Assembly: GCA_046705065.1 (NCBI GenBank)
Contig: JBJKQT010000107.1
Location: 7,836 to 71,835, forward strand
Direction of reading: 5' to 3'
DNA: 64,000 nucleotides
DNA from: Desulfocapsaceae bacterium
GTDB taxonomy: Bacteria > Desulfobacterota > Desulfobulbia > Desulfobulbales > Desulfocapsaceae
The first letter of the stretch is position 1. Each line of letters starts with the position of its first letter. Below are positions 29,536 to 42,841 of the stretch, piece by piece. Below the pieces are notes generated by a model. The model saw only the letters and a program-made list of their open reading frames with translations, searched no databases and was not told the DNA's origin. The translations under genes were made by a program, and so were the position numbers.

Positions 29536-30735
29536 ATGGCTAAAACCTTCATCACCGATTCATTGACCGGCAGCCGGATTCCTTTTTTACGCGGCATTTT
29601 GATCCGTTCCCTGCAAGACAGCGGGGTGCCATTCGACAAAGCCTATGAGATAGCATCTCAAGCCCGTGACGGACTGACTCAGAAAAACGAGTTCCAGTCC
29701 ATGGAGCTTCGCGAGATGGTAGTCGATCTTCTGGCAAAAGAGGGATATTTTGATGTCATCGCAAGATATTCGGATAGATCCCTGCCCCAAGAGCCATTTA
29801 CTGTGCTGGAACGCGACGGTTCGCGCTACGGTTTCTCCACCTCCGACAATCGGCGCTTTCTCGAATCCTGCGGCCTTACGCCGGATGAATCCATGCTTGT
29901 TGTCGGTAAACTCAAAGATTCTTTGGTTCAGGAAAACCGGCGTGAGATTACGACCGATCTGCTTGGCTACAGAATATATCAAATTTTAAAGAACGAATTT
30001 GGTCCTCCCTACGATCAAAACTATCTGGTCTGGAAAAAATATCAGCGAAGCGACAGGCCTCTTTTGCTGATGATCGGCGGAGCAACCGGCAGCGGAAAAT
30101 CCACAATTGCCACCGAAATTGCCCACAGTCTCGATATCGTCAGAACCCAGTCGACGGATATGCTCAGAGAGGTGATGCGGATCATGATTCCGGAGGGGCT
30201 GCTTCCCATTCTGCATATTTCCTCGTTTCGAGCATGGCAGGCCTTGCCCAGAGTCAAAGAGCCGATTCGACCGCCGCCGGACTCCCTGTTGATCGATGGG
30301 TACTCCATGCAGGCAAGGCTGCTCGCAACGAGTTGTGAAGCCGTGATCAACAGGGCATTGAAAGAGCGCGTTTCCCTTATTCTTGAAGGCGTTCATGTCG
30401 AGCCTACGCTGCTGCAGAGAATTCCGGCCACAAGCGATGCGGTGGTGGTGATGATCATGCTTGCCGTTTTGAAACAGGAACAGCTCAAAAAACAAATCAT
30501 CGGGAGAAGCGATCAGGCGCCCGTGCGAAGAGCAAGACGATATCTCAAACATTTTCAAGAGATTTGGTCCATTCAGTCTCATCTCCTGGCGGAAGCGGAT
30601 CAAAATCAGGTACCCATTGTAATCAACGACAATAAAGAGCAGGTAATCCGCAAGATTATGAAAATCATCGTTACTGCTTTGCGGAAGGATTTCGAGACCA
30701 CCGCGGAAGAACTCTTTCCTCACATGATGAGGTGA
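29536..30735 (+). CDS. 2-phosphoglycerate kinase-like P-loop protein with N-terminal ATP-cone-like region
   Basis: IPFLRGILIRSL...AYEIA N-terminus. P-loop GGATGSGKSTIATEIAHSLDI..TQSTDMLREVMR is typical of the COG2074-type 2PGK family. Confidence 0.65.
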   Translation: MAKTFITDSLTGSRIPFLRGILIRSLQDSGVPFDKAYEIASQARDGLTQKNEFQSMELREMVVDLLAKEGYFDVIARYSDRSLPQEPFTVLERDGSRYGFSTSDNRRFLESCGLTPDESMLVVGKLKDSLVQENRREITTDLLGYRIYQILKNEFGPPYDQNYLVWKKYQRSDRPLLLMIGGATGSGKSTIATEIAHSLDIVRTQSTDMLREVMRIMIPEGLLPILHISSFRAWQALPRVKEPIRPPPDSLLIDGYSMQARLLATSCEAVINRALKERVSLILEGVHVEPTLLQRIPATSDAVVVMIMLAVLKQEQLKKQIIGRSDQAPVRRARRYLKHFQEIWSIQSHLLAEADQNQVPIVINDNKEQVIRKIMKIIVTALRKDFETTAEELFPHMMR

Positions 30736-30741
30736 ACCGGC

Positions 30742-32022
30742 ATGACGCTGCATTTGTATAAGGGCCTGATGTTTATCCTTGACGGATTGGGAGATCGCCC
30801 GGTTTCGGCAATGGACGGTAAGACGCCTTTAGAGGCAGCCGAGACCCCCGTCATGAACGACCTTCTAACTCGTGGCCGGGGAGGCCTCATGGATCCTTTG
30901 ACCCCCGGCGTCCCGGTGGATACCCATACCGGCACCGCTTTGTTGACAGGTGTATCGGTGAAAAACGCCCGCCTGCTCAAGCGCGGGCCCATTGAGGCCG
31001 CCGGAGCGGGAGTGAAACTGCAGAATGGCGATGTGGCCTTCCGCTGTAATTTCGCAACGATAAAACAGGAAGGCGACGAGTTTTTGATCAGTAACCGGCG
31101 GGCCGGCCGCCTCGGCGAAGAGGCGGTGGCCGAGCTTGCCCGGAGCCTGCAAAAAGTCGATCTGGGCGACGGTATTATTGCCTCTGTCCATCCGGCCACT
31201 CAGCATAGGGCCATCCTCCATCTTACGGGTACCGGACTTTCCTCCATGGTCAGCGATTCCGATCCCATGTCCGGGACACGGATGAAAATAGAAACCGTTG
31301 TTCCGCTGGACCCGCAGAATGCCTCGGCGCAAAGGACGGCCGATGCAATGAACCGGTTCGTCAAAATCGCCCATGCCAGGCTGGAGGATCATCACTTCAA
31401 TCGAGCCCGCAGAGCGTCCGGTGAGCTTGTGGCAAACGGGATAATCTGCCGGGGAGCTGGAGAAATCCTGGATCTCGACAACCTGTTGCATCATCTTGAG
31501 CTGAAAGCGGCATTGATAACGGGAGACTGCACCATTGCCGGGCTCGGCCGGTTGTTGAAACACAGCGTATTTACTTCCCCGCTCTTTACGGCCCTTGCCG
31601 ACACCGACATCGATGCCAAAATCAGCACGGGGCTCGCCGCTTTGAACGAGCATGAGATCGTCTTCATCCATTTGAAGGGCCCTGATATTTGTTCCCATGA
31701 TTTCAACCCGACGGGCAAAAAAGAATTTCTTGAACGGTTTGATAGAGCCCTAGCCGCCGTTCCCACCGAAGACCTGGTTATCGGTATCACAGGGGATCAT
31801 TCCTCGGACAGCGGCTTGGGGGATCATTGCGGAGACCCGGTTCCTTCACTTATATCTGCGCCGCGTGGCCGGCGCGATCTTTGCCTCGAATATGGCGAGA
31901 CCGGATGCTGTTGCGGGGGGCTAGGACGGATAAGCGCCAATAATTTCCTGATAACCATGCTTGATGCCATGGGATGCCTGCACAATTATCGGGCTGAAGA
32001 TACGCAATATTATCCCATATAA
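30742..32022 (+). CDS. apgM: archaeal-type cofactor-independent phosphoglycerate mutase family protein (ApgM, metalloenzyme superfamily)
   Basis: FILDGLGDRP...GKTPLEAAETPVMNDL, DVAFRCNFAT, IHLKGPDICSHD and ITGDHSSDS..GDH.GDPVP metal-site motifs. Confidence 0.7.
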   Translation: MTLHLYKGLMFILDGLGDRPVSAMDGKTPLEAAETPVMNDLLTRGRGGLMDPLTPGVPVDTHTGTALLTGVSVKNARLLKRGPIEAAGAGVKLQNGDVAFRCNFATIKQEGDEFLISNRRAGRLGEEAVAELARSLQKVDLGDGIIASVHPATQHRAILHLTGTGLSSMVSDSDPMSGTRMKIETVVPLDPQNASAQRTADAMNRFVKIAHARLEDHHFNRARRASGELVANGIICRGAGEILDLDNLLHHLELKAALITGDCTIAGLGRLLKHSVFTSPLFTALADTDIDAKISTGLAALNEHEIVFIHLKGPDICSHDFNPTGKKEFLERFDRALAAVPTEDLVIGITGDHSSDSGLGDHCGDPVPSLISAPRGRRDLCLEYGETGCCCGGLGRISANNFLITMLDAMGCLHNYRAEDTQYYPI

Positions 32023-32140: not shown

Positions 32141-33013
32141 ATGAATAGGTTAACTTTGCTGCTTTGCTCGGTACTTTTGCCGGTGCTGTCTGCGACCTCT
32201 GCAGCCGCTGCCGGAACCGTTATTCAGAATAAGGGCTCGGATACTTTGGTCAATGTGGCTCAGACGTGGGCGGAGGCGTACCAAAAGATCAACCCCAATG
32301 TTTCCGTCGCCGTCACCGGGGGAGGATCCGGAACGGGTTTTGCGGCACTTATCAACGGGACCGTCGATATCGCCAATGCCAGCCGCAAGATTAAGAGAAT
32401 CGAAAGGAATATGGCAAAAAAGAACGGCCATGTACCCGTTGAATTCATCGTCGGTTACGATGCCTTGGCTGTCTATATCAATAAAAATAACCCTCTTGAT
32501 TCGGCGAGTCTTGCTCAACTTGCCGGAATTTATGGTGAAAAGGGAAATATTGTTCGCTGGGATCAACTGGGTGTCAAGGTTCCGGGATGTGAGAACCAGG
32601 AGATCATCCGGGTCAGCCGTCAAAACAATTCCGGTACTTATGCTTACTTTCGCGAGACCATCATGGAGAGGCAGGACTATAAGTCCGGTTCGCGGGATAT
32701 GCACGGCTCAAAGGATGTCATAGATTTAGTTGAAAAAACTCCATGCGCCATCGGGTATAGCGGGCTTGCCTATGATACGGATCGGGTGAAGATGCTCTGT
32801 ATTTCCCAAAAGCAAGGAGAAAAATGCGTCGAGCCGTCGGAGGCCACAGCCTCAAACAAAACCTATCCCATCGCCAGACCGCTTTTTATGTACACCAACG
32901 GCAAGCCTACCGGAGATGTGAAACAATATATGGATTGGATCTTAAGCGATGAAGGTCAATGCATCATCAAGAAAAAGGGATATGCACCTGTCCGGCCGGT
33001 TACCTGCAAATAA
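32141..33013 (+). CDS. pstS: phosphate ABC transporter substrate-binding protein PstS family
   Basis: Signal peptide, then GSDTLVNVAQTWAEAYQK..VAVTGGGSGTGFAALINGTVDIANASR. Confidence 0.85.
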   Translation: MNRLTLLLCSVLLPVLSATSAAAAGTVIQNKGSDTLVNVAQTWAEAYQKINPNVSVAVTGGGSGTGFAALINGTVDIANASRKIKRIERNMAKKNGHVPVEFIVGYDALAVYINKNNPLDSASLAQLAGIYGEKGNIVRWDQLGVKVPGCENQEIIRVSRQNNSGTYAYFRETIMERQDYKSGSRDMHGSKDVIDLVEKTPCAIGYSGLAYDTDRVKMLCISQKQGEKCVEPSEATASNKTYPIARPLFMYTNGKPTGDVKQYMDWILSDEGQCIIKKKGYAPVRPVTCK

Positions 33014-33070
33014 CATGGTTGATGTGCAGATGTGACGATACCGGGCGGCCTGCGCCGTCGGAGGGTACTC

Positions 33071-34171
33071 ATGAGTCATTACGAAGAACGTCTGGAGCAT
33101 GACATCTCGGTCATCCGGCAGAAAACCGCGGATCTCGCCGTGAAGGCGGAAAAAGCCATCAAAGATGCGATCCATGCTTTGCTGACAGCCGATCACACCT
33201 TGTCATATGAGACCATCATCAGGGACAATGTAATCAACCGGGACAATGAAGAGATTACCAGGTTGAGTTATGCTTTCATTGCCCGGCATCTCCCCAGTGC
33301 CGGGCATCTCCGCCGGGTCTCCTCTATTCTCCATCTCTGCATCTTTCTTGAAAGAATCGGCGATCAGGCTGTGGGCATCTCCAAAGTTGCAGTCAACCTG
33401 TCCAAGCCTTTGGATGAAAAGATGACCCGGCATGTGCTGGTTCTCGAGGAGGAGTCTCGGCATATGCTGCATCAGGCGATTACCTCTTTCAACGAGGAGA
33501 ATGTCGAATTGGCACGCAGCACGAAGCTTCTCGATACCCAGGTGGACCATACCTTTCAGAATGCCTTTGCCGATCTTTCCGATGAAAAGAACAAAGCAAC
33601 CTGGCCGATAAAAGACCTCCTCGGTTTGCTCTCCGTCTTTTATTCGTTGGAACGCGTCAGCGATCTGTCAAAAAATATCTGTGAGAAAACTATCTTCGCC
33701 GTCTTGGGGGAAACCAAGAAAAGAAAGCCGGTGAAAGTTCTATTTCTCGCTGAATCCGACAACTACTTCTGCCGAATGGCTGAGGCCATCGGGAAAAAAT
33801 CCTTTTCCCGGTGCGGGATATTCTCCCGGGCCGGCCGGAATGACGCCAAAGAGGAAGATGTGGAATTTTCCAGCTTCATGCAGGAGTATGGGCTCGACTA
33901 TGAATCGGGTGAGTGCACTACCGTCGAGATGCTGCCCAGGTTGGATGAGTTTAATGTGATAATCGGATTGCAGGCGCCGGTCTCTTCGTATATTTCGGCG
34001 CTTCCTTTTAACGTCGTGGCCCTTGAATGGCAAGGCCCTCCGATAATGGAGATGGCGACGAGTGGGGATAAGCATAAAGCATTCAAAGAATTATTTCGTT
34101 ATTTGTCAGAAAAAATCCATGATCTGATGGAGATTATGCGAGGTAAGGAGGCTGTTTGTGGCCCAAGCTGA
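33071..34171 (+). CDS. phoU: PhoU-domain protein fused to a degenerate LMW-phosphatase/ArsC-like C-terminal domain
   Basis: A GGAGGG RBS precedes ATG 33071. Two PhoU repeats are present (ERIGDQAV, LERVSDLSKNI). The C-terminal ~140 aa start VKVLFLAESDNYFCRMAEA with an LMW-PTP-like layout. Confidence 0.7.
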   Translation: MSHYEERLEHDISVIRQKTADLAVKAEKAIKDAIHALLTADHTLSYETIIRDNVINRDNEEITRLSYAFIARHLPSAGHLRRVSSILHLCIFLERIGDQAVGISKVAVNLSKPLDEKMTRHVLVLEEESRHMLHQAITSFNEENVELARSTKLLDTQVDHTFQNAFADLSDEKNKATWPIKDLLGLLSVFYSLERVSDLSKNICEKTIFAVLGETKKRKPVKVLFLAESDNYFCRMAEAIGKKSFSRCGIFSRAGRNDAKEEDVEFSSFMQEYGLDYESGECTTVEMLPRLDEFNVIIGLQAPVSSYISALPFNVVALEWQGPPIMEMATSGDKHKAFKELFRYLSEKIHDLMEIMRGKEAVCGPS

Positions 34172-35285
34172 TAAGATCGCCGGCACTTCCCGGGATGACA
34201 GTCGCAATGCCGCCTGGTTCATCGACAAGTCCGTCCAGGTAATGGTTTTTATCGCCGGAATATCCGCGATTCTTTTTATCCTCGGAATTTTTATCTTTAT
34301 CACCAAAGAGGGGATCGGATTTCTCGTCAAATCCGATTATACACTCAGTGAACCCCTTTTCGGGCTCCTTGAGGACAAAGGAATGCCGGATGATCTGCTT
34401 GACGCCCTTTCCCCGTTGGAGGGCAAACCGTTTCACTCGTCGGCTGAGCTTGTCAAGGCCGTGGAAACGACCATCGGAGTGGAAAAGGCCCGCCCCTACG
34501 AACAGCTCATCGCTAAAAATTCCCTCGATAAGCCCTTCAACTTCAAGACGTTTTTTACATCACCCAAATGGGCTCCGACATCCGAAGTCAAACCCGTGTA
34601 CGGAACCTTGGCCCTGATGGCGGGCACGGCGAGTGTGACCGGTTTTGCGATGCTGATCGCCATTCCTTTTTCCATGGGAGCCGCCATTTTTATCGGCGAG
34701 TTCGCAACCGGCAGGAAGCGTGAATTCTTAAAGATTCTTGTGGAGCTGTTGGCCGCCATTCCATCGGTGGTTTGGGGATTTATCGGGCTTTCCATTATGA
34801 ACCCTCTGATCATCAAACTCTTTCATGTGCCCATTGGGCTCAACATTTTAAATGCCGGCCTCATCCTTGGTTTGATGGCGGCGCCGATCATGACCACCAT
34901 CGCGGAAGATGCTTTGAAAGCCGTGCCCGACAAATATCGTGAGGCCGCAGAGGCCATGGGGGCGACACGATGGCAAGTGATCTTCAAAGTGGTGATTCCG
35001 GCTGCCAAGAACGGATTGATGGCGGCTGTGCTCCTCGGAGTGGGGCGCGGTTTCGGCGAGACCATGGCCGTCCTGATGGCCACCGGCCATTCCATCAATC
35101 TGCCCACCAGTATTTTCGATTCTGTACGCGCCATGACAGCAACCATTGCCGCGGAGCTTGGGGAAGCCGCCGTGGGGTCAGACCACTACCGGGCCCTTTT
35201 CACCCTGGGAATCTTTCTCTTTCTCGTGACCTTTCTGATTAACCTGACCGCTGATTTGGTCCTACGTGGGGTACGGAAGGAGTAA
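34158..35285 (+). CDS. pstC: phosphate ABC transporter permease PstC
   Basis: GTG start after an AAGGAGG RBS, overlapping the phoU end by 14 nt. Multi-TM, with the EAA-like segment EDALKAVPDKYREAAEAMGATRWQ. Confidence 0.85.
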   Translation: MAQADKIAGTSRDDSRNAAWFIDKSVQVMVFIAGISAILFILGIFIFITKEGIGFLVKSDYTLSEPLFGLLEDKGMPDDLLDALSPLEGKPFHSSAELVKAVETTIGVEKARPYEQLIAKNSLDKPFNFKTFFTSPKWAPTSEVKPVYGTLALMAGTASVTGFAMLIAIPFSMGAAIFIGEFATGRKREFLKILVELLAAIPSVVWGFIGLSIMNPLIIKLFHVPIGLNILNAGLILGLMAAPIMTTIAEDALKAVPDKYREAAEAMGATRWQVIFKVVIPAAKNGLMAAVLLGVGRGFGETMAVLMATGHSINLPTSIFDSVRAMTATIAAELGEAAVGSDHYRALFTLGIFLFLVTFLINLTADLVLRGVRKE

Positions 35286-35290
35286 ACGCC

Positions 35291-36160
35291 ATGTTTGAAG
35301 CGACCCAGCTCAATATACGCAACAGAAAGGTGGAGAAGCTCTTCAAGATACTGTTCATGTTGATGACGGGCTTGCTCATACTCCCCGTTTTACTGATCCT
35401 GGCCATTCTGACCTATAAAGGCGGGTCCATGGTCAGTATGAATTTTCTCTTTACCAATCCGACTAACGGCATGACGGAGGGTGGAATTTTTCCGGCATTG
35501 ATCGGCACCGTGTGGCTGGTCAGTGTGGCGCTTCTCTTTTCGGTGCCCCTTGGCGTTGCCGCGGCCGTTTATCTCAGTGAATATGCTGGGGATAACTGGC
35601 TTACTCGGATCATTAACCTGGCAATTATCAATCTGGCCGGAGTCCCGTCCATCGTGCATGCCTTGTTCGGTCTGGGAGCCTTTGTTCTCTTTTTCAAATT
35701 CGGCACCAGCATTCTGGCGGCGAGCCTGACTCTCGGAATCATGACCCTTCCTGTGGTGATCGTCTCCACAAAAGAATCACTGCAGGCGGTGCCCCAGGCT
35801 TTCAGAGAGGCCTGCTGGAATATGGGCGCAACCAAATGGCAGACAATTAGAAAGGTCGTTCTTCCCAACTCCATCAGCGGCATCCTGACCGGCATCATTC
35901 TCGAGGTTTCACGTACTGCCGGGGAAACCGCACCGATCATGTTTACAGGAGCCGCCTTCTTTCTTCCCCAGTTGCCGGAATCGATTTTCGACCAGACCAT
36001 GGCCTTGTCTCTCCACTTGTTTGTTATCGCGACGCAGGTTCCCGGTGTGCCGGAGGATTTGCCGTACGGAGTGGCCTTCGTGCTCATTACGATGGTGCTG
36101 CTTATGAATTCACTTTCCATTGCCTTCCGGGTTTATTTGCGCGGCAAGAAGAAATGGTAG
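35291..36160 (+). CDS. pstA: phosphate ABC transporter permease PstA
   Basis: Multi-TM, with ESLQAVPQAFREACWNMGATKWQTIRKVVLP. Confidence 0.85.
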   Translation: MFEATQLNIRNRKVEKLFKILFMLMTGLLILPVLLILAILTYKGGSMVSMNFLFTNPTNGMTEGGIFPALIGTVWLVSVALLFSVPLGVAAAVYLSEYAGDNWLTRIINLAIINLAGVPSIVHALFGLGAFVLFFKFGTSILAASLTLGIMTLPVVIVSTKESLQAVPQAFREACWNMGATKWQTIRKVVLPNSISGILTGIILEVSRTAGETAPIMFTGAAFFLPQLPESIFDQTMALSLHLFVIATQVPGVPEDLPYGVAFVLITMVLLMNSLSIAFRVYLRGKKKW

Positions 36161-36957
36161 GTAAAATAGGGGAAATGATGGCAGAGCCTGCACTTGAAAA
36201 AAAACCGGTGAAGCTTGAAGTGGAAGATGTCGCTGTGACCTACGGCGGCAAAACTGTCTTGAGCGGTGTTACCTTCAATATCCATGAACATGAGATATTC
36301 GGCATCATCGGTCCGGCGAACAGTGGCAAAACATCTTTTTTAAAGACGCTGAACCGGATGGACATTTTCGATCCTTTCATGAAATTTAGCGGCTGTATCA
36401 GGTTCAGCGGCAAAGATATCCGAAAATGGCGCAATGTCTACAGCCTACGCAAACGTATCGGAGTCGTCTTTCCTCTGCCCGTTGGGCTGCCGTTGACGAT
36501 CTATGAAAACGTCGCTTTCGCACCACGGCTCTCCGGTATCACCGCAAAGGAAGATCTGGACATCATCGTCGAACGATGTCTTGCCCGGGCAGCTTTGTGG
36601 GATGAAGTCAAAGACAGGCTGAATTCGCTCGGCAGCCTGCTCTCCGGCGGCCAGCAACAACGTCTGACGATTGCGAGGGCTCTTTCTCAGGAGCCGGAGA
36701 TGCTGATGCTTGACGAGTTTTCCATCGCCGTAGACCCGGTCACCACCATGCGGATTGAGGATGTTTTGAAAGAGTTGAAAAGGGAGATGACCATCATCCT
36801 TGTCACCAATCTTGTGCAGCAGGCGAGACGGCTTGCCGACCGCACGGCCCTTTTTTTGGGCGGTGAGGTGGTCGAAGTGGGGATCACCGAAGATCTGTTT
36901 GCAGGAGAGGTAAAGGATTCGCGAACCAAAGATTATTTAGCTGGAAGGTTTGGTTGA
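36154..36957 (+). CDS. pstB: phosphate ABC transporter ATP-binding protein, divergent paralog (Q-loop and H-loop substituted)
   Basis: Walker A GPANSGKTS, signature LSGGQQQRLTIAR, Walker B MLMLDE, PstB-type C-terminus KDYLAGRFG. The Q-loop position reads VVFPLP and the H-loop reads LVTNLV. Alternative starts lie at 36175 and 36178. Confidence 0.8.
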   Translation: MVGKIGEMMAEPALEKKPVKLEVEDVAVTYGGKTVLSGVTFNIHEHEIFGIIGPANSGKTSFLKTLNRMDIFDPFMKFSGCIRFSGKDIRKWRNVYSLRKRIGVVFPLPVGLPLTIYENVAFAPRLSGITAKEDLDIIVERCLARAALWDEVKDRLNSLGSLLSGGQQQRLTIARALSQEPEMLMLDEFSIAVDPVTTMRIEDVLKELKREMTIILVTNLVQQARRLADRTALFLGGEVVEVGITEDLFAGEVKDSRTKDYLAGRFG

Positions 36958-36962
36958 GAGCC

Positions 36963-37748
36963 ATGATCATGGAACAGGAAAACAAGCTTGCAGTGGAAAC
37001 CGTTGCACTGAACCTTTGGTATGGCACCTTCCAGGCCTTGACCAATGTTAACCTAAAGATTAAAAAAGGAATTATAACTTCTTTGATCGGGCCGTCGGGT
37101 TGCGGCAAGTCCACTCTTCTCCGGAGTATTAACCGGATCAACGAGAGGCTTGGCTATGTCCGGGTGGAAGGGTCCGTCAAGGTCATGGATGCCAACATCT
37201 ATGACTCCGGTGTCGAGCCGGTCCAGTTGCGGAAACAAGTCGGGATGGTCTTTCAGCGTCCCAACCCGTTGCCCCTGTCCATTAGAGAAAATATCTTGTT
37301 CGGTCATAAGCTGCACACGCCGTTTTCTCTGAAGATAAAAAAGCAGAGGCAAGACGAGATCGTCGAGGAGGCGTTAACACAGGTACTTCTCTGGGACCAG
37401 GTCAAAGACCGATTGAAACGCAAGGCCACGTCTCTTTCATTGGAGGAGCAGCAGAAGCTCTGTATTGCCCGGCTTCTTCCGGCAAAACCGGAAATCCTGC
37501 TGATGGATGAACCTTGCTCGGCCCTGGATCCAAAAGGGACCGAGGCCGTTGAGGAGCTTATATGGGATCTCAGAGGTCAATACACCATAATGATTGTGAC
37601 ACACAACATGGCTCAGGCCCGCCGGGCCAGCGATGAATGCGCCTTTATGCTCATGGGAGAGCTCATCGAACATGAGACGACGGAGGAAATATTCGTTACC
37701 CCGAAGGATACAAAAACAGCTGATTATATTGAAGGAAGATATGGTTGA
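36963..37748 (+). CDS. pstB: phosphate ABC transporter ATP-binding protein (degenerate signature motif)
   Basis: Walker A GPSGCGKST, Q-loop MVFQRPNP, Walker B LLMDEPCSALDP, H-loop VTHNM, C-terminus ADYIEGRYG. The signature reads LSLEEQQK instead of LSGGQQQR. Confidence 0.85.
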   Translation: MIMEQENKLAVETVALNLWYGTFQALTNVNLKIKKGIITSLIGPSGCGKSTLLRSINRINERLGYVRVEGSVKVMDANIYDSGVEPVQLRKQVGMVFQRPNPLPLSIRENILFGHKLHTPFSLKIKKQRQDEIVEEALTQVLLWDQVKDRLKRKATSLSLEEQQKLCIARLLPAKPEILLMDEPCSALDPKGTEAVEELIWDLRGQYTIMIVTHNMAQARRASDECAFMLMGELIEHETTEEIFVTPKDTKTADYIEGRYG

Positions 37749-37799: not shown

Positions 37800-38072
37800 A
37801 TGGAAATCATCATCGGTTCAATACCGCCCATGGGGCCGTCGCCGCCCAAACCAACGGCAGAGACTGGCCCTGCCGTTGAGGCGCAACTTCTGCATATTCG
37901 TCCGCCCCGTAAAGGAATAGCCGGACCTTCCGGGGTTGAACGACGGGGAAAAAAGGTCAACGATCCCATAAAAGGACGGGTGCTCACTATTCTCGTTCCC
38001 GACGGGGACTTACTTCCTAAAGATATCGCTGCCGAAAAATATAAGGTGGTTCTGCGTTTTATCCGCAAATAA
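37800..38072 (+). CDS. small hypothetical protein with Pro-rich N-terminus
   Basis: An AAGGGAG RBS lies 6 nt before ATG 37800. The gene is 90 aa, and I recognise no family. Confidence 0.4.
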   Translation: MEIIIGSIPPMGPSPPKPTAETGPAVEAQLLHIRPPRKGIAGPSGVERRGKKVNDPIKGRVLTILVPDGDLLPKDIAAEKYKVVLRFIRK

Positions 38073-38249: not shown

Positions 38250-40298
38250 TTAAACGCGAAAGCTTCGTACGATGGTATCGAGTTCGGCTGCAAGGTTTTT
38301 AAGGTGGTCCGCCTTTACTTTTACTTGATTGCTGCAATCGGCAACTTCTCCGGAGCCTTGGTCGATAACGGCTATATCCTGCGAGATCTCCTTTGCCGTC
38401 GCAGAACTTTGGCTGGCGTTTTCATTAACGGCCTGAATACCAAGAGACGTTTGAGAGATGCTTCGGGCTATCTCTTTGGTTACGCCGGACTGCTGTTCAA
38501 CAGCCGTGGCAATGCTTCCAATAATTTCGTTTACCACGTCGATAACCTTCGAGATTTCACCGATACCCTTGACCGTCCCTTCTGTGCAGCCATGGATGTT
38601 TTCAATTTTGCCTCTGATTTCCAGAGAAGCTTCCGATGTTTGTTTCGCCAGTTCCTTGATTTCGTTGGCAACAATGGCAAAACCTTTTCCCGCTTCACCT
38701 GCGCGTGCAGCTTCAATGGTCGCATTGAGTGCCAATAAATTCACCTGTTCCGAAATTTCGGTAATGGTTTCGATAACCATATTTATAGCTGCTGCGGCAT
38801 GTTCCAATTCGTCCAATTGACATGTTGTTTCGCTCGTCCTATGAACAGCCTCGCTTGCTATCGACCTTGCCTTTTCGGCATTTTGGGCAATTTCCTCTAT
38901 GGTTGCGGTCATCTCTTCCGCAGCGGTGGCGACAACTGAGGAATTCATGGAAGACTCTTCAGTTGCGGCAGCCACGTTATTCAATTGGACCGTCATTTCC
39001 CCGGAGGCAGACGACACCCTGTTCGAACGGGCAGAGGTCTCAACCGCCCCTTTGGACAGGTAGGTTGCGATTTCCTGGAATTCACTGGATGACTGATTGA
39101 GAGTGCGGGAATTTTCAGCTATATTCTTGATTATTCCCTGCAGTTTGCCAAGAAAAGTGTTGAACCAGCCGGCCAGTTCGCCAATTTCATCTTTTTTGAT
39201 TATTTCAAGTCGCTTGGTAAGATCTCCTTCTCCTTCGGCGATGTCTTTTAACATCCCGATCGTTCGGTTTATGGGGAGGGTTACCGAACGGACACTTAAA
39301 AAAAGTGGTATCATAACGGCCACCAGCAATACCACACACAGCGTTGCAGTTCTCGTCTGGACTTTTGCCATCGTTCCGTATTCATCTGAGGCGTTGTATA
39401 TATATGCTATTACACCAATTTGTTTGCCGCTAAAATCCTTTACCGGGAAAGTACTGGTGTAATAATTTCCTACTCTGAAGGAAACAAATCCCCTCTTGCC
39501 TGCCGCTAGCTGTTTGGAGGAGAGAACGGCATCGGTGGTCCGTTTATCGGTTGATGAAATGAAAACAAAATCTCCTATGACAGGGTTTTTGGCAGCATCC
39601 TGCAATTGGGTGGCAATCGGGAGAAATTCCTTGTTCATATATACGGCTATGTATTCGTTTTTGTTGCTGACGCTGTATTTGACCAAGGGATCATAAGCAG
39701 ACAGCGACTCCACGGAGCCAAGGAATTTGCCGGTATCATCAAGAACGGGCGCCACTCCGCGAATGGCAAACCCGCCGCGACCGATCTCGATGCCGCTGAT
39801 CACGCTGTGTGTAGTGCTGATTTCTTTTATCATGGGACGGAAGGAACTGAGATCGTCGCTTTTGTGCTGGTTTTTTTTCCACAGCCGCAGCAGGCTTCTT
39901 GCAGGAGGAACGTGGAAATGAAGACGCAATGAATTAGCTTTATGTGTTTGCCGGTATCCGTTTTCAATTGAGGCAAAATAACTGCGCAATTGTTGACGTG
40001 CTGCTTCCATATTAGGATCGTCGGAATTGTTCAGATTACCCTTATAGGCGGTTTCATAGGCGCCAAGGACTGTTTTTTCCCTGCTGAAAAGGGAAGATTG
40101 GGCAAGTAAATTGTCAGCGATACTTTTCTCGTTTTTTGCAATATCCGCCTCTTTTGACTTGGCCATACTTTCAAGATTCAATTTTGTCTGGTTATTGAGC
40201 ATTGAAGTTATAACGAAAAAGAGCGAAACGGAAAAAATAACGGTAACGCTGACCACCGGTAAAAGAATACGAGTGCCGATTTTGTGTATGATTCTCAT
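38250..40298 (-). CDS. methyl-accepting chemotaxis protein with Cache-like periplasmic domain and HAMP
   Basis: Two TM helices flank a ~300-aa periplasmic region. A HAMP domain follows, then the signalling hairpin [31 protein letters not shown]. Confidence 0.9.
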
Positions 40299-40504
40299 TT
40301 TATTCTCCGTTTATTTGTTCGTTTTCATAATACACAGTAATTCAAATGATTCTCGATCAACACAATCGTTTAAAACTTTCAACCAGGCAGATCGTATTTT
40401 TACGCGACCAAAAAATACCCCGCAGTACCGAAAAGCATACTTGATTAGTAAGTGTATGGACGGATCCATTCAGGTTTGCATATCAAAATCGTATGCCGCT
40501 TCCG

Positions 40505-41323
40505 TTATGGGTTGCCGCGGGATGGTAAAGCTCGTTTGATTTTTGAGTAATCTTCATCTCTTGATATTTCAAAGGCTTGTATTTTAAGAGCCTGAAGAAC
40601 AGGGGCGTTTGGTTGAAGAGCGAGAAGCGCCGCTTGAATTTTTTGCTTTATCTGTTCCGGCAGGGTCTTTTTGATCGAAAAAGCCCAACCGGGGATCATT
40701 TCACAGTTTTTAATTATTTTTATCTGCGAAACCGCAATAAACTTGTCAACTTTATGCAGTGCCGACTCACGAATAAATCCGGCATCCGCTTCCCTCGCAT
40801 AAACAGAGAGTATTACATTTTCTTGTTTGTTATCGACCGCTTCAATGATATTGCAATCGGTATCAACGTGGATCCCGGCTTCCATTAAGGTTAATTTTTG
40901 CGAAAGATAGCCGCCGGCCGATCTGAGACCGACTATGGAAACCTTTTTACCTCGTAAGTCTTCCAGTGTGGATATTCCACTGTCCGTCCTGGCAATGATG
41001 ATCCCTCTGAATTTATTTTTATCCGAAACTATGACCTCGTGACGGTCTGAAACCAAGGTGTAGACTAATGGATTTTCATAGCCGAAATCGATGGAGCCAT
41101 TTTTGATTTTATTCTCGTATTGGGAAAAGTCGCTTGTGACGACAGGCTCGATTTTCAATCCGGTTTTTTGGGACAAATATTCAGACAATATTCCGATTTT
41201 TTTATTGATTTCAATAGATGAATAAAGCGGCAACATAGAGAGTTTGTAGGTGTCACCGGCATGTACAGACATGGGTGCCATGCCGATCAGTACAACGATT
41301 GTGAACAGTATTAATAATCGCAT
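40505..41323 (-). CDS. PhnD-like (phosphate/phosphite/phosphonate family) periplasmic substrate-binding protein
   Basis: Signal peptide MRLLILFTIVVLIGMAPMSVHA. YKLSMLPLYSS...IARTDSGISTLEDLRGKKVSIVGLRSAGGYL...ADAGFI matches the phosphonate-binding fold pattern. An AGGAG RBS is present. Confidence 0.7.
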   Translation of the reverse strand: MRLLILFTIVVLIGMAPMSVHAGDTYKLSMLPLYSSIEINKKIGILSEYLSQKTGLKIEPVVTSDFSQYENKIKNGSIDFGYENPLVYTLVSDRHEVIVSDKNKFRGIIIARTDSGISTLEDLRGKKVSIVGLRSAGGYLSQKLTLMEAGIHVDTDCNIIEAVDNKQENVILSVYAREADAGFIRESALHKVDKFIAVSQIKIIKNCEMIPGWAFSIKKTLPEQIKQKIQAALLALQPNAPVLQALKIQAFEISRDEDYSKIKRALPSRGNP

Positions 41324-41351
41324 GTTTAGCTCCTATCGGATATCCTTGCTG

Positions 41352-42359
41352 TCAATTGCGTCTCAGTCGATTTATGGCGGTCTTGATGGAAAAACGCATA
41401 CGCTCCAGTGATGCCGCTAATTCCGCAATTTCACCACCGCCTTTAATTTCAATGGGTAGATTGATTTCGCCCAAACTTATTTTTTCGGCAGCAAGGGTCA
41501 GTGCTTTGATAGGAGATGCAATCGTCCGTGCAACCAGTAAAAAACTAAGAAAACCTAAAATGGCGATGACTCCTAAAATCAATAAAAGTGGAATCAAACT
41601 TTTTAGAATGGCTTTTTCAACGTCCTCGGTAAATATTCCAACATGTGTTTCTCCCCCCGTATCGCCAATCTTTACCGCAACGTCATGAATTTTTTGTCCT
41701 CCGACGCTGAGATCAAGAGCGCTTTTTTGCATCTTCCCGGGGATTTTGTTTCGTGTAGAAATTTCTTTTGGGAATCCATTTTTTTCGACCTTTTGCACAA
41801 AATCAGCCGAAAAACGTTTGAGGTCACCAAAAATGCCGGCGACAACTTGGCCTTTTCCATTTATGACGGAAACATAAGCAACTCCTGGTAAGCCGGCATT
41901 GGTTTCTGCTGCCTTATTTATCAAGAGAAAATCGTTTATCAGATAAGGTTGTTGAATTGATGCGCTGAATGACCTTGAGATCGAAAAGGTTCGCAAGTTT
42001 ATCTGGTCGTTCATCAAAGAAGGGACATAGGTCATATAGACCACACTGAGAATACATCCTGTAACCAAGATAAAAGCTACGAAAAGGAGTAATAATTTTT
42101 TGCTTATGGTAAGTCCCGGCGATTTCTCCGGGGGTGCAGCTTCTTCGTCATCGATTTCCCAATCGATATTTTGAGGTTTTGGTGTTGTTTCTTTATTGTC
42201 ACCTTGGAGTTGCGCTGACTTCTCCGAAAGATTCTGCTTATACACCTCAATTGTGTCACCGCAGTTCCGACACTTAAATCTTACCTTAGGACCGGAAATT
42301 TTTTGTTCATCAATTTTGTATTGTTTCCCACATTCTTCGCATTGAATAATCCTATGCAT
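41352..42359 (-). CDS. membrane protein: N-terminal MJ0042-type zinc ribbon, periplasmic region, C-terminal HAMP domain, no output domain
   Basis: An AAGGAG RBS precedes ATG 42359. The ribbon is CEECGKQY...FKCRNCGD. Two TM helices are present. HAMP-like ARTIASPIKALTLAAEKISLGE...GEIAELAASLERM lies at the C-terminus. Confidence 0.65.
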   Translation of the reverse strand: MHRIIQCEECGKQYKIDEQKISGPKVRFKCRNCGDTIEVYKQNLSEKSAQLQGDNKETTPKPQNIDWEIDDEEAAPPEKSPGLTISKKLLLLFVAFILVTGCILSVVYMTYVPSLMNDQINLRTFSISRSFSASIQQPYLINDFLLINKAAETNAGLPGVAYVSVINGKGQVVAGIFGDLKRFSADFVQKVEKNGFPKEISTRNKIPGKMQKSALDLSVGGQKIHDVAVKIGDTGGETHVGIFTEDVEKAILKSLIPLLLILGVIAILGFLSFLLVARTIASPIKALTLAAEKISLGEINLPIEIKGGGEIAELAASLERMRFSIKTAINRLRRN

Positions 42360-42379
42360 ATTCTCTCCTTTTGCCTCTC

Positions 42380-42841
42380 TCAGATTCGATCCAATTCCTG
42401 AAGCATACATTTAACAAACTCATTTCGCTTTTTCCCTTCCGGGAGCTGCTTTTCCAATAATTCAACCAATTCCACCGCTCGACTCTTGGGTATTTTAAAA
42501 ACGCCGTTACCCATTTCAAGAACTGCATCTTCGACCATTACCTTAGCGATCGGACCTGTTATTTTGGAGAGTTGTTTTGCCAAGAAACCTAGGAATTTCA
42601 TGTCGAGCAATTCAGCTTCTTTGCGAACTTCTTCGATGATGCCGTAAGCCATAAGTTTCGATACCAACGGACGCATATCAGAAAGGCTTGAATTAACTTT
42701 TCGTGAAATGGTGTCAATATCGTTTTTACCATCGATCTCTGCTAATATTTGAAGCATTTTTACGGTCAGGGATACTTGCCCTTCAATGGCAAATGTTCGT
42801 TTGAACACTGCTTTCGATATATCATCAGCTAAAGGGTTCAT
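42380..42841 (-). CDS. small soluble helical protein of unknown function, first gene of the chemoreceptor operon
   Basis: A GAGGAGG RBS is present. The gene is 153 aa. A possible winged-helix-like N-half reads LQILAEIDGKNDIDTISRKV...LVSKLMAYGIIEE. The family is not recognised. Confidence 0.5.
   Translation of the reverse strand: MNPLADDISKAVFKRTFAIEGQVSLTVKMLQILAEIDGKNDIDTISRKVNSSLSDMRPLVSKLMAYGIIEEVRKEAELLDMKFLGFLAKQLSKITGPIAKVMVEDAVLEMGNGVFKIPKSRAVELVELLEKQLPEGKKRNEFVKCMLQELDRI

Follow-up and report, generated by a model that had tools for sequence, protein, structure and literature searches.

The 64,000-nucleotide stretch analysed here (the window) comes from the Desulfocapsaceae bacterium assembly GCA_046705065.1 (contig JBJKQT010000107.1, positions 7,836-71,835, forward strand) and contains a cluster of six plus-strand genes, pstS-phoU(fusion)-pstC-pstA-pstB1-pstB2, for the ATP-binding cassette (ABC) phosphate importer Pst. 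The last two genes encode two different PstB ATPases. Neither PstB1 nor PstB2 carries the complete canonical set of ABC motifs found in Escherichia coli PstB, and the departures in the two proteins are complementary. The operon probably encodes a distinct subtype of Pst importer, in which an obligate PstB1·PstB2 heterodimer would combine one consensus and one degenerate ATP site.

The motif columns were assigned by a residue-by-residue HMMER alignment of PstB1 and PstB2 to E. coli PstB in the solved PstSCAB complex (PDB ID: 9k3x). Both proteins align with E. coli PstB over their full length with no large gaps, and are 37-38% identical to each other. Both retain the A-loop tyrosine (Y20 in E. 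coli, Y30 in PstB1, Y23 in PstB2), the Walker A lysine (K49, K59 and K52, respectively) and the Walker B Asp/Glu pair (D178/E179, D187/E188 and D185/E186). In PstB1, the Q-loop glutamine (Q98 in E. coli, Q101 in PstB2) is replaced by P107, the H-loop histidine (H210 in E. coli, H217 in PstB2) by N219, the first residue of the D-loop (S182 in E. coli and S189 in PstB2, both SALD) by I191 (IAVD), and the proline following the catalytic glutamate (P180 in E. coli, P187 in PstB2) by F189. The signature residues S155-G156-G157-Q158 of E. coli are matched by S164-G165-G166-Q167 in PstB1 and by S162-L163-E164-E165 in PstB2. The initial annotation, made by reading the motifs directly, had described PstB1 as keeping Walker A, Walker B and the signature with a Pro in the Q-loop and an Asn in the H-loop, and PstB2 as keeping Walker A, Q-loop, Walker B and H-loop with the signature LSLEEQQK. 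The alignment agrees with both descriptions and places every one of these substitutions inside the Q-loop, H-loop or signature column. It adds three changes in PstB1: the IAVD D-loop, DEF in place of DEP, and an asparagine at the inner glycine of Walker A.

In E. coli PstB, ATP is held by Walker A and Walker B of one subunit and the LSGGQ of the other (PMC12976172). Given this geometry, all of the deviations fall on one composite site, while the other is fully canonical. The motor is therefore modelled as an obligate PstB1·PstB2 heterodimer docked on PstC·PstA. Site 2, composed of Walker A, Walker B, Q-loop and H-loop of PstB2 and the LSGGQ of PstB1, would be fully canonical and would carry out the hydrolysis that resets the transporter. 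Site 1, composed of the P-loop of PstB1 and the LSLEE of PstB2, would be degenerate on both faces: it would retain the residues for nucleotide binding (A-loop Tyr, P-loop Lys/Thr, Walker B Asp/Glu) and be devoid of the Q-loop Gln, the H-loop His "linchpin", the D-loop Ser and the opposing Gly-Gly-Gln. Such a site most likely binds ATP and hydrolyses it slowly or not at all; its role would be structural or allosteric, and the importer would spend about one ATP per transport cycle. Only the heterodimer would have a consensus site, because a homodimer of PstB1 would be without the Gln and the His twice and a homodimer of PstB2 would present LSLEE twice.

ATPase activity is almost completely lost when the H-loop histidine of HlyB, MalK or HisP is mutated, and the CFTR substitution G551D, which places an acidic residue at the second signature glycine, abolishes the ATP-dependent function of the facing site. 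The nucleotide-binding residues of PstB1 (A-loop Y30, K59/T60 and D187/E188) are invariant across phyla. Since these residues are retained, the His, Gln, Ser and GGQ are lost, and the H-loop and G551D effects are known, ATP binding with little or no hydrolysis would be expected at site 1.

The altered motifs are widely conserved. The 120 closest database homologues of PstB1, at 74% identity or more, come from Thermodesulfobacteriota, Gammaproteobacteria, Acidobacteriota and others, the cultured Elongatibacter sediminis being one of the named sources, and all of them, like PstB1 itself, read VVFPLPVGLP in the Q-loop, VTNL (with the Asn) in the H-loop and DEFSIA[VI]DP in the D-loop. PstB2 and its 120 closest homologues have LSLEE in 114 and LSLEQ in 7 of the 121 sequences, with Walker A, Q-loop, Walker B and H-loop intact. 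A genome scan with the PstB1-specific peptides DPVTTMRI and RIGVVFPLP, taking one genome per species, located the PstB1 type in at least 590 species-level genomes; the hosts among the matches listed include Desulfobacterota, Gamma-, Alpha- and Betaproteobacteria, Acidobacteriota, Gemmatimonadota, Myxococcota, Planctomycetota, SAR324 and Rhodothermales, with Accumulibacter, Dechloromonas, Thiodiazotropha and Sedimenticolaceae among the named proteobacterial hosts. A search of a plasmid collection for cultured carriers returned only canonical pstB, at less than 60% identity.

Eighty loci fetched from the genome scan were compared. The gene order pstS-phoU-pstC-pstA-B1-B2 is near-universal among them. 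The PstB1 motifs are kept in 79/79 loci; the Q-loop is the same in 78 and reads VVFPLPAGLP in one, and the signature LSGGQQQRL is invariant. The PstB2 adjoining PstB1 has LSLE[EQ]QQKL in all 75 readable loci, the loci without a scored PstB2 being contig ends or frameshifts. Columns at least 97% identical across phyla number 131 of 257 in PstB1 (79 loci) and 123 of 257 in PstB2 (75 loci), and the whole of the altered Q-loop, D-loop and H-loop of PstB1 lies among them. At two loci (L058 and L068), a canonical pstC-pstA-pstB set (LSGGQQQRL, VTHNM) directly follows the asymmetric operon, about 4.8 kb downstream of the pair, so a single genome can harbour both types of importer.

The invariant PstB1 signature also bears on an alternative in which transport is powered by a PstB2 homodimer while PstB1 serves in an accessory or signalling role, for example together with the PhoU fusion; this would be similar to the situation in Enterococcus faecalis. 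Genetics in that species assigns unequal roles to the tandem pstB genes, with PstB2 required and PstB1 accessory (PMC12096839); a PhoU-PstB interaction has been reported in E. coli (Gardner et al. 2014, as cited in PMC12976172), and the operon has an unusual PhoU fusion. In such a homodimer, however, both sites would contain LSLEE and neither would be consensus, whereas a PstB1 signature kept in every locus is what would be expected if it completes the active site of PstB2. Moreover, the E. faecalis pair differs in kind, with intact motifs in both copies and 60% identity (PMC12096839). We therefore consider this arrangement very unlikely.

The two genes are under strong purifying selection. 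The ratio of nonsynonymous to synonymous substitution rates (dN/dS), computed against two close relatives (L087 and L088), is 0.04-0.10 for PstB1 and 0.05-0.06 for PstB2, close to the 0.03-0.04 of pstA and pstC. The two genes are also inherited together: pairwise distances of PstB1 and PstB2 are correlated over 73 loci (Mantel r = 0.60, reached by 0/999 permutations). The low dN/dS, the conserved columns and the correlated distances indicate that PstB1 is a constrained, functional protein and no decaying copy. There is one feature that decay of a duplicate, or an artefact of assembly or annotation, would account for: against TIGR00972, the PstB equivalog family, PstB1 scores 271.2 bits and PstB2 330.2 bits, both below the curated cut-off of 343.2. 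TIGR00972 is nevertheless by far the best family match for both proteins. Against decay or artefact, the open reading frames (ORFs) are intact and the type recurs in at least 590 genomes, with its motifs kept in the loci compared. The reading was rejected on these grounds, together with the selection and column data, and has next to no chance of being correct.

An exhaustive HMMER search of cluster representatives revealed a second group, PstB1', approximately 44% identical to PstB1, in which the Q-loop glutamine is replaced by Ala or Ser and the H-loop histidine by Asn, and Walker B is canonical. In 6/6 readable pairs the gene downstream of PstB1' encodes a protein, PstB2', whose catalytic motifs are intact and whose signature is degenerate: LPLEQ (L085), LSAEQ (L083), LPMDQ (L090), LSLEQ (L140 and L150) and LSGEQ (L158). 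Complementary degeneracy accordingly co-occurs in all 75 readable tandem pairs of the first lineage and all six of the second. Together with the motif columns, these counts support, at the level of sequence, the proposal of the initial annotation that a 1:2 heterodimer would have one fully canonical site and one site degenerate on both sides. A neighbour-joining tree built from 248 columns with 200 bootstraps groups PstB1 with PstB1' (99% bootstrap) and PstB2 with PstB2' (78%), and places PstB2 nearer to canonical PstB than PstB1. These clades suggest one old duplication followed by complementary specialisation, although a distance tree without an outgroup is indicative only.

Four of the six PstB2' loci (L090, L140, L150 and L158) come from a metagenome scan aimed at the second lineage; its peptides proved unspecific and returned mostly ordinary pstB, which provided an unplanned control. 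A single PstB-like ORF is present in 73 of the 80 control loci, and nearly all are canonical (Q, H and [LMI]SGGQ), the 73 signatures comprising 57 LSGGQ, 14 MSGGQ and 2 ISGGQ. All five degenerate signatures in the control set occur in loci that also encode a Q-degenerate PstB; in four cases the gene sits directly downstream of one for a PstB degenerate in both Q and H. Two loci (L156 and L168) have tandem pairs that are canonical in both copies, resembling the Firmicutes type. The exchange of His for Asn occurs in paired genes only and is absent from the single-copy controls. Loss of the Q-loop glutamine, on the other hand, is also seen in single-copy pstB of pstSCAB(-phoU) loci (L104, L125 and L142, and also L161), where it is replaced by Ala or Asp while the histidine (VPH[SN]) and the LSGGQ are kept; on its own it is therefore not diagnostic of a dead site. 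The specific mark of the pair is the His-to-Asn exchange plus the opposing degenerate signature.

Several observations weigh against an asymmetric motor with one silent site. The main reason for caution is that the catalytic glutamate of PstB1 (E188, equivalent to E. coli E179) is kept and invariant, so that site 1 may keep some activity, whereas loss of the Walker B catalytic glutamate is a hallmark of the degenerate sites of exporters (PMC7544095). The single-copy genes just described suggest that the Q-loop glutamine is dispensable in some presumably homodimeric PstBs and that its substitution need not kill a site. The tree behind the history of the pair is a neighbour-joining tree of 248 columns without an outgroup, and a search for sequencing runs that could show expression found none. 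In the literature, searches of open-access full text on the PstB pair or on degenerate sites in ABC importers gave no description of complementary degeneracy in PstB, although an earlier mention may exist. This result fits the remark in the initial annotation that such asymmetry is not the textbook picture for Pst, E. coli PstB being two copies of one subunit (PMC12976172).

It could be argued from the first two of these points, and from the equally invariant Walker A lysine and A-loop tyrosine, that both composite sites are catalytically competent, the substitutions being non-canonical but working, and that two ATP are used per cycle. Against this, five elements of a single site are altered, on both of its faces (Q-loop, H-loop, D-loop, DEP to DEF, and the opposing GGQ to LEE); mutations of the H-loop and of the signature glycines belong to the most severe ones in ABC ATPases; and the histidine exchange is confined to paired genes. 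Two active sites therefore seem unlikely. At the other extreme, site 1 may have ceased to be a nucleotide site altogether and serve as a permanent contact between proteins or as a pocket for some other ligand, with PstB1 a pure scaffold. The two acidic residues of LSLEE would be expected to repel the γ-phosphate of ATP, and the altered loops show less variation than a merely relaxed site would be expected to. However, the invariance across phyla of three elements of PstB1 (adenine-stacking tyrosine, P-loop Lys/Thr, Walker B Asp/Glu) would be hard to explain without nucleotide binding, which makes a scaffold distinctly unlikely. The heterodimer with one hydrolytic and one ATP-binding site remains our preferred interpretation.

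The PhoU protein encoded by the second gene of the operon carries a C-terminal extension of 149 residues with no Pfam match, which is present in 67 of 70 related loci. An AlphaFold2 (AF2) model of the extension matches the thioredoxin-coupled ArsC/low-molecular-weight protein tyrosine phosphatase (LMW-PTP) fold, with pI258 ArsC giving template-modelling (TM) scores of 0.82-0.85; only one of five models was confident (predicted local distance difference test, pLDDT, 81.9), from an alignment of three sequences, and a homology search with the domain gave only two relatives. The CX5R(S/T) active-site loop is without its catalytic Cys and Arg: this protein has FLAESDNYFCRM, and most relatives have F[VL]DEDN... 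at the loop. The contact between PhoU and PstB reported for E. coli in the work of Gardner et al. (2014), as cited in PMC12976172, makes a functional link between the PhoU fusion and the asymmetric motor possible.

A more far-reaching proposal is that the degenerate site has a regulatory role, sensing a nucleotide or other ligand in concert with the PhoU-pseudo-ArsC/LMW-PTP fusion, and that these operons represent an unrecognised class of single-hydrolytic-site, feedback-gated importers spread by horizontal transfer. We regard this as speculative and rather unlikely; if it were true, uptake rate and ATP cost (one ATP per phosphate) would be set in another way than in the textbook Pst. Carriers among the fetched loci include Accumulibacter, Dechloromonas, Thiodiazotropha, Sedimenticolaceae and Desulfocapsaceae, which are associated with heavy phosphate or polyphosphate cycling.

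The positions of the genes and motifs are listed in the table. pstS, pstC and pstA each score above the curated NCBIfam cut-off and lie directly upstream of the ATPase genes on the same strand. Homologues of PstB1 and PstB2 have lengths of 259 and 261 residues, respectively, which together with the DNA sequence suggests that the probable starts are ATG 36178 for pstB1 and ATG 36963 for pstB2; with these starts, 5 nt separate the pstB1 stop codon from pstB2, and the two genes are in different frames. No further pstB was found within the window, and a scan of the operon detected no promoter or terminator signal exceeding that of shuffled sequence. PstC exceeds the TIGR02138 profile in length by about 80 residues, and the profile matches residues 130-371 only; approximately 90 additional residues lie after the first predicted membrane segment. 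Directly after pstB2 there is a 90-residue ORF that has a ribosome-binding site ahead of it and matches no family. It is kept only in the closest Desulfocapsaceae-like relatives (L001-L003, L006, L087 and L088) and, since it is conserved there with dN/dS of 0.06-0.08, it is probably a real lineage-specific gene. The two genes immediately ahead of pstS encode a protein with an ATP-cone and a P-loop kinase-like domain, and a metalloenzyme resembling cofactor-independent phosphoglycerate mutase; they may have a link to phosphate metabolism. Downstream, three genes on the opposite strand encode a 682-residue putative methyl-accepting chemotaxis protein (read by eye), a phosphonate-type periplasmic binding protein (PF12974) and a zinc-ribbon/HAMP protein.

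Table. Genes and motifs of the asymmetric pst operon and its surroundings (positions in the window; aa, amino acids).
Feature	Positions	Strand	Description
Genes ahead of pstS	29536-30735; 30742-32022	+	Two genes, see text
pstS	32141-33013	+	Periplasmic phosphate-binding protein, 290 aa; TIGR02136 241.7 bits (cut-off 206.6); PF12849
phoU fusion	33032-34171	+	PhoU with C-terminal ArsC/LMW-PTP-fold domain (predicted), 379 aa; TIGR02135 over residues 20-227
PhoU extension	33722-34168	+	C-terminal domain of the fusion
pstC	34158-35285	+	Permease, 375 aa; TIGR02138 266.5 bits
pstA	35291-36160	+	Permease, 289 aa; TIGR00974 266.4 bits
pstB1	36154-36957	+	ATPase, 267 aa; degenerate Q-loop, D-loop and H-loop, intact signature; best match TIGR00972
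PstB1 Walker A	36310-36336	+	GPANSGKTS; K59 and T60 kept, inner Gly is Asn
PstB1 Q-loop	36463-36480	+	VVFPLP; P107 codon 36472-36474
PstB1 signature	36640-36666	+	LSGGQQQRL, canonical
PstB1 Walker B and D-loop	36700-36738	+	MLMLDEFSIAVDP; D187 and E188 kept, DEP to DEF, SALD to IAVD
PstB1 H-loop	36799-36816	+	LVTNLV; N219 codon 36808-36810
pstB2	36954-37748	+	ATPase, 264 aa; intact catalytic motifs, degenerate signature; best match TIGR00972
PstB2 Walker A	37089-37115	+	GPSGCGKST, canonical
PstB2 Q-loop	37245-37262	+	MVFQRP; Q101 kept
PstB2 signature	37434-37460	+	LSLEEQQKL; L163/E164/E165 at the G156/G157/Q158 positions
PstB2 Walker B and D-loop	37494-37532	+	ILLMDEPCSALDP, canonical
PstB2 H-loop	37596-37610	+	VTHNM; H217 kept
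90-aa ORF	37800-38072	+	Probable lineage-specific gene
Downstream genes	38250-42410	-	Three genes, see text

Pst serves as the textbook case of high-affinity phosphate import and provides the input to Pho-regulon signalling; a symmetric homodimer of PstB is assumed to be its motor. If the heterodimer proposed here is correct, the principle of asymmetric nucleotide-binding domains (NBDs) would extend from exporters (as reviewed in PMC3971661) to a type I importer. The operon would then provide a natural system for testing if a single hydrolytic site is enough to drive a binding-protein-dependent importer, and for finding what the second site does, be it holding the dimer together, allostery, or regulation through PhoU. 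The subtype may also matter for models of phosphate cycling by carriers such as Accumulibacter. For annotation, both proteins are now plain "phosphate ABC transporter ATP-binding protein", and both are below the PstB equivalog cut-off.

Among importers, the CUT2 sugar transporters RbsA, MglA and XylG have two non-equivalent ATP sites; they belong to another family, carry another substrate, and have their NBDs fused in one polypeptide. Among the closest known systems is E. coli PstSCAB (PDB ID: 9k3x/9k3s; PMC12976172), which has the same four transporter components and the same composite-site geometry. Over 248 aligned columns, E. coli PstB is 50% identical to PstB2 and 40% identical to PstB1. 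The 2026 structure paper describes PstB as two copies of a single subunit (PMC12976172), giving two identical consensus sites, in contrast with the two paralogues with complementary defects found here; also unlike E. coli, phoU occupies the second position of the operon and carries a fused additional domain.

Tandem pstB genes are known from other bacteria. Cyanobacterial pst1 clusters carry pstB1-pstB1', for example sll0683/sll0684 in Synechocystis sp. PCC 6803 (PMC1906773). The pstB1/pstB2 genes of E. faecalis OG1RF (Firmicutes) share with the present pair their adjacent position in one pst-phoU operon, and the genetics shows them not to be equivalent; that study noted no earlier work on tandem pstB paralogues (PMC12096839). 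With its complementary degeneracy and lower identity, the pair described here does not belong to the Firmicutes type.

A close parallel in site architecture lies with the heterodimeric exporters TM287/288, BmrCD, LmrCD, TAP1/2, CFTR and MRP1 (PMC3971661, PMC7544095), among which pairs of consensus and degenerate sites are frequent (PMC3971661). As in the Pst pair, the two NBDs are non-identical, and the deviations are confined to one composite site, affecting catalytic loops of one NBD, the H-loop among them, and the signature of the other, while the second site is consensus. The exporters are of type IV, whereas Pst is a type I binding-protein-dependent importer with NBDs on separate polypeptides; and the degenerate site of the exporters is typically without the Walker B catalytic glutamate, which is kept here, the Q-loop glutamine and the D-loop being changed instead. 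The PstB1/PstB2 pair therefore appears to resemble the asymmetric NBD dimers of exporters, but in a type I importer and with a different set of degenerate residues.

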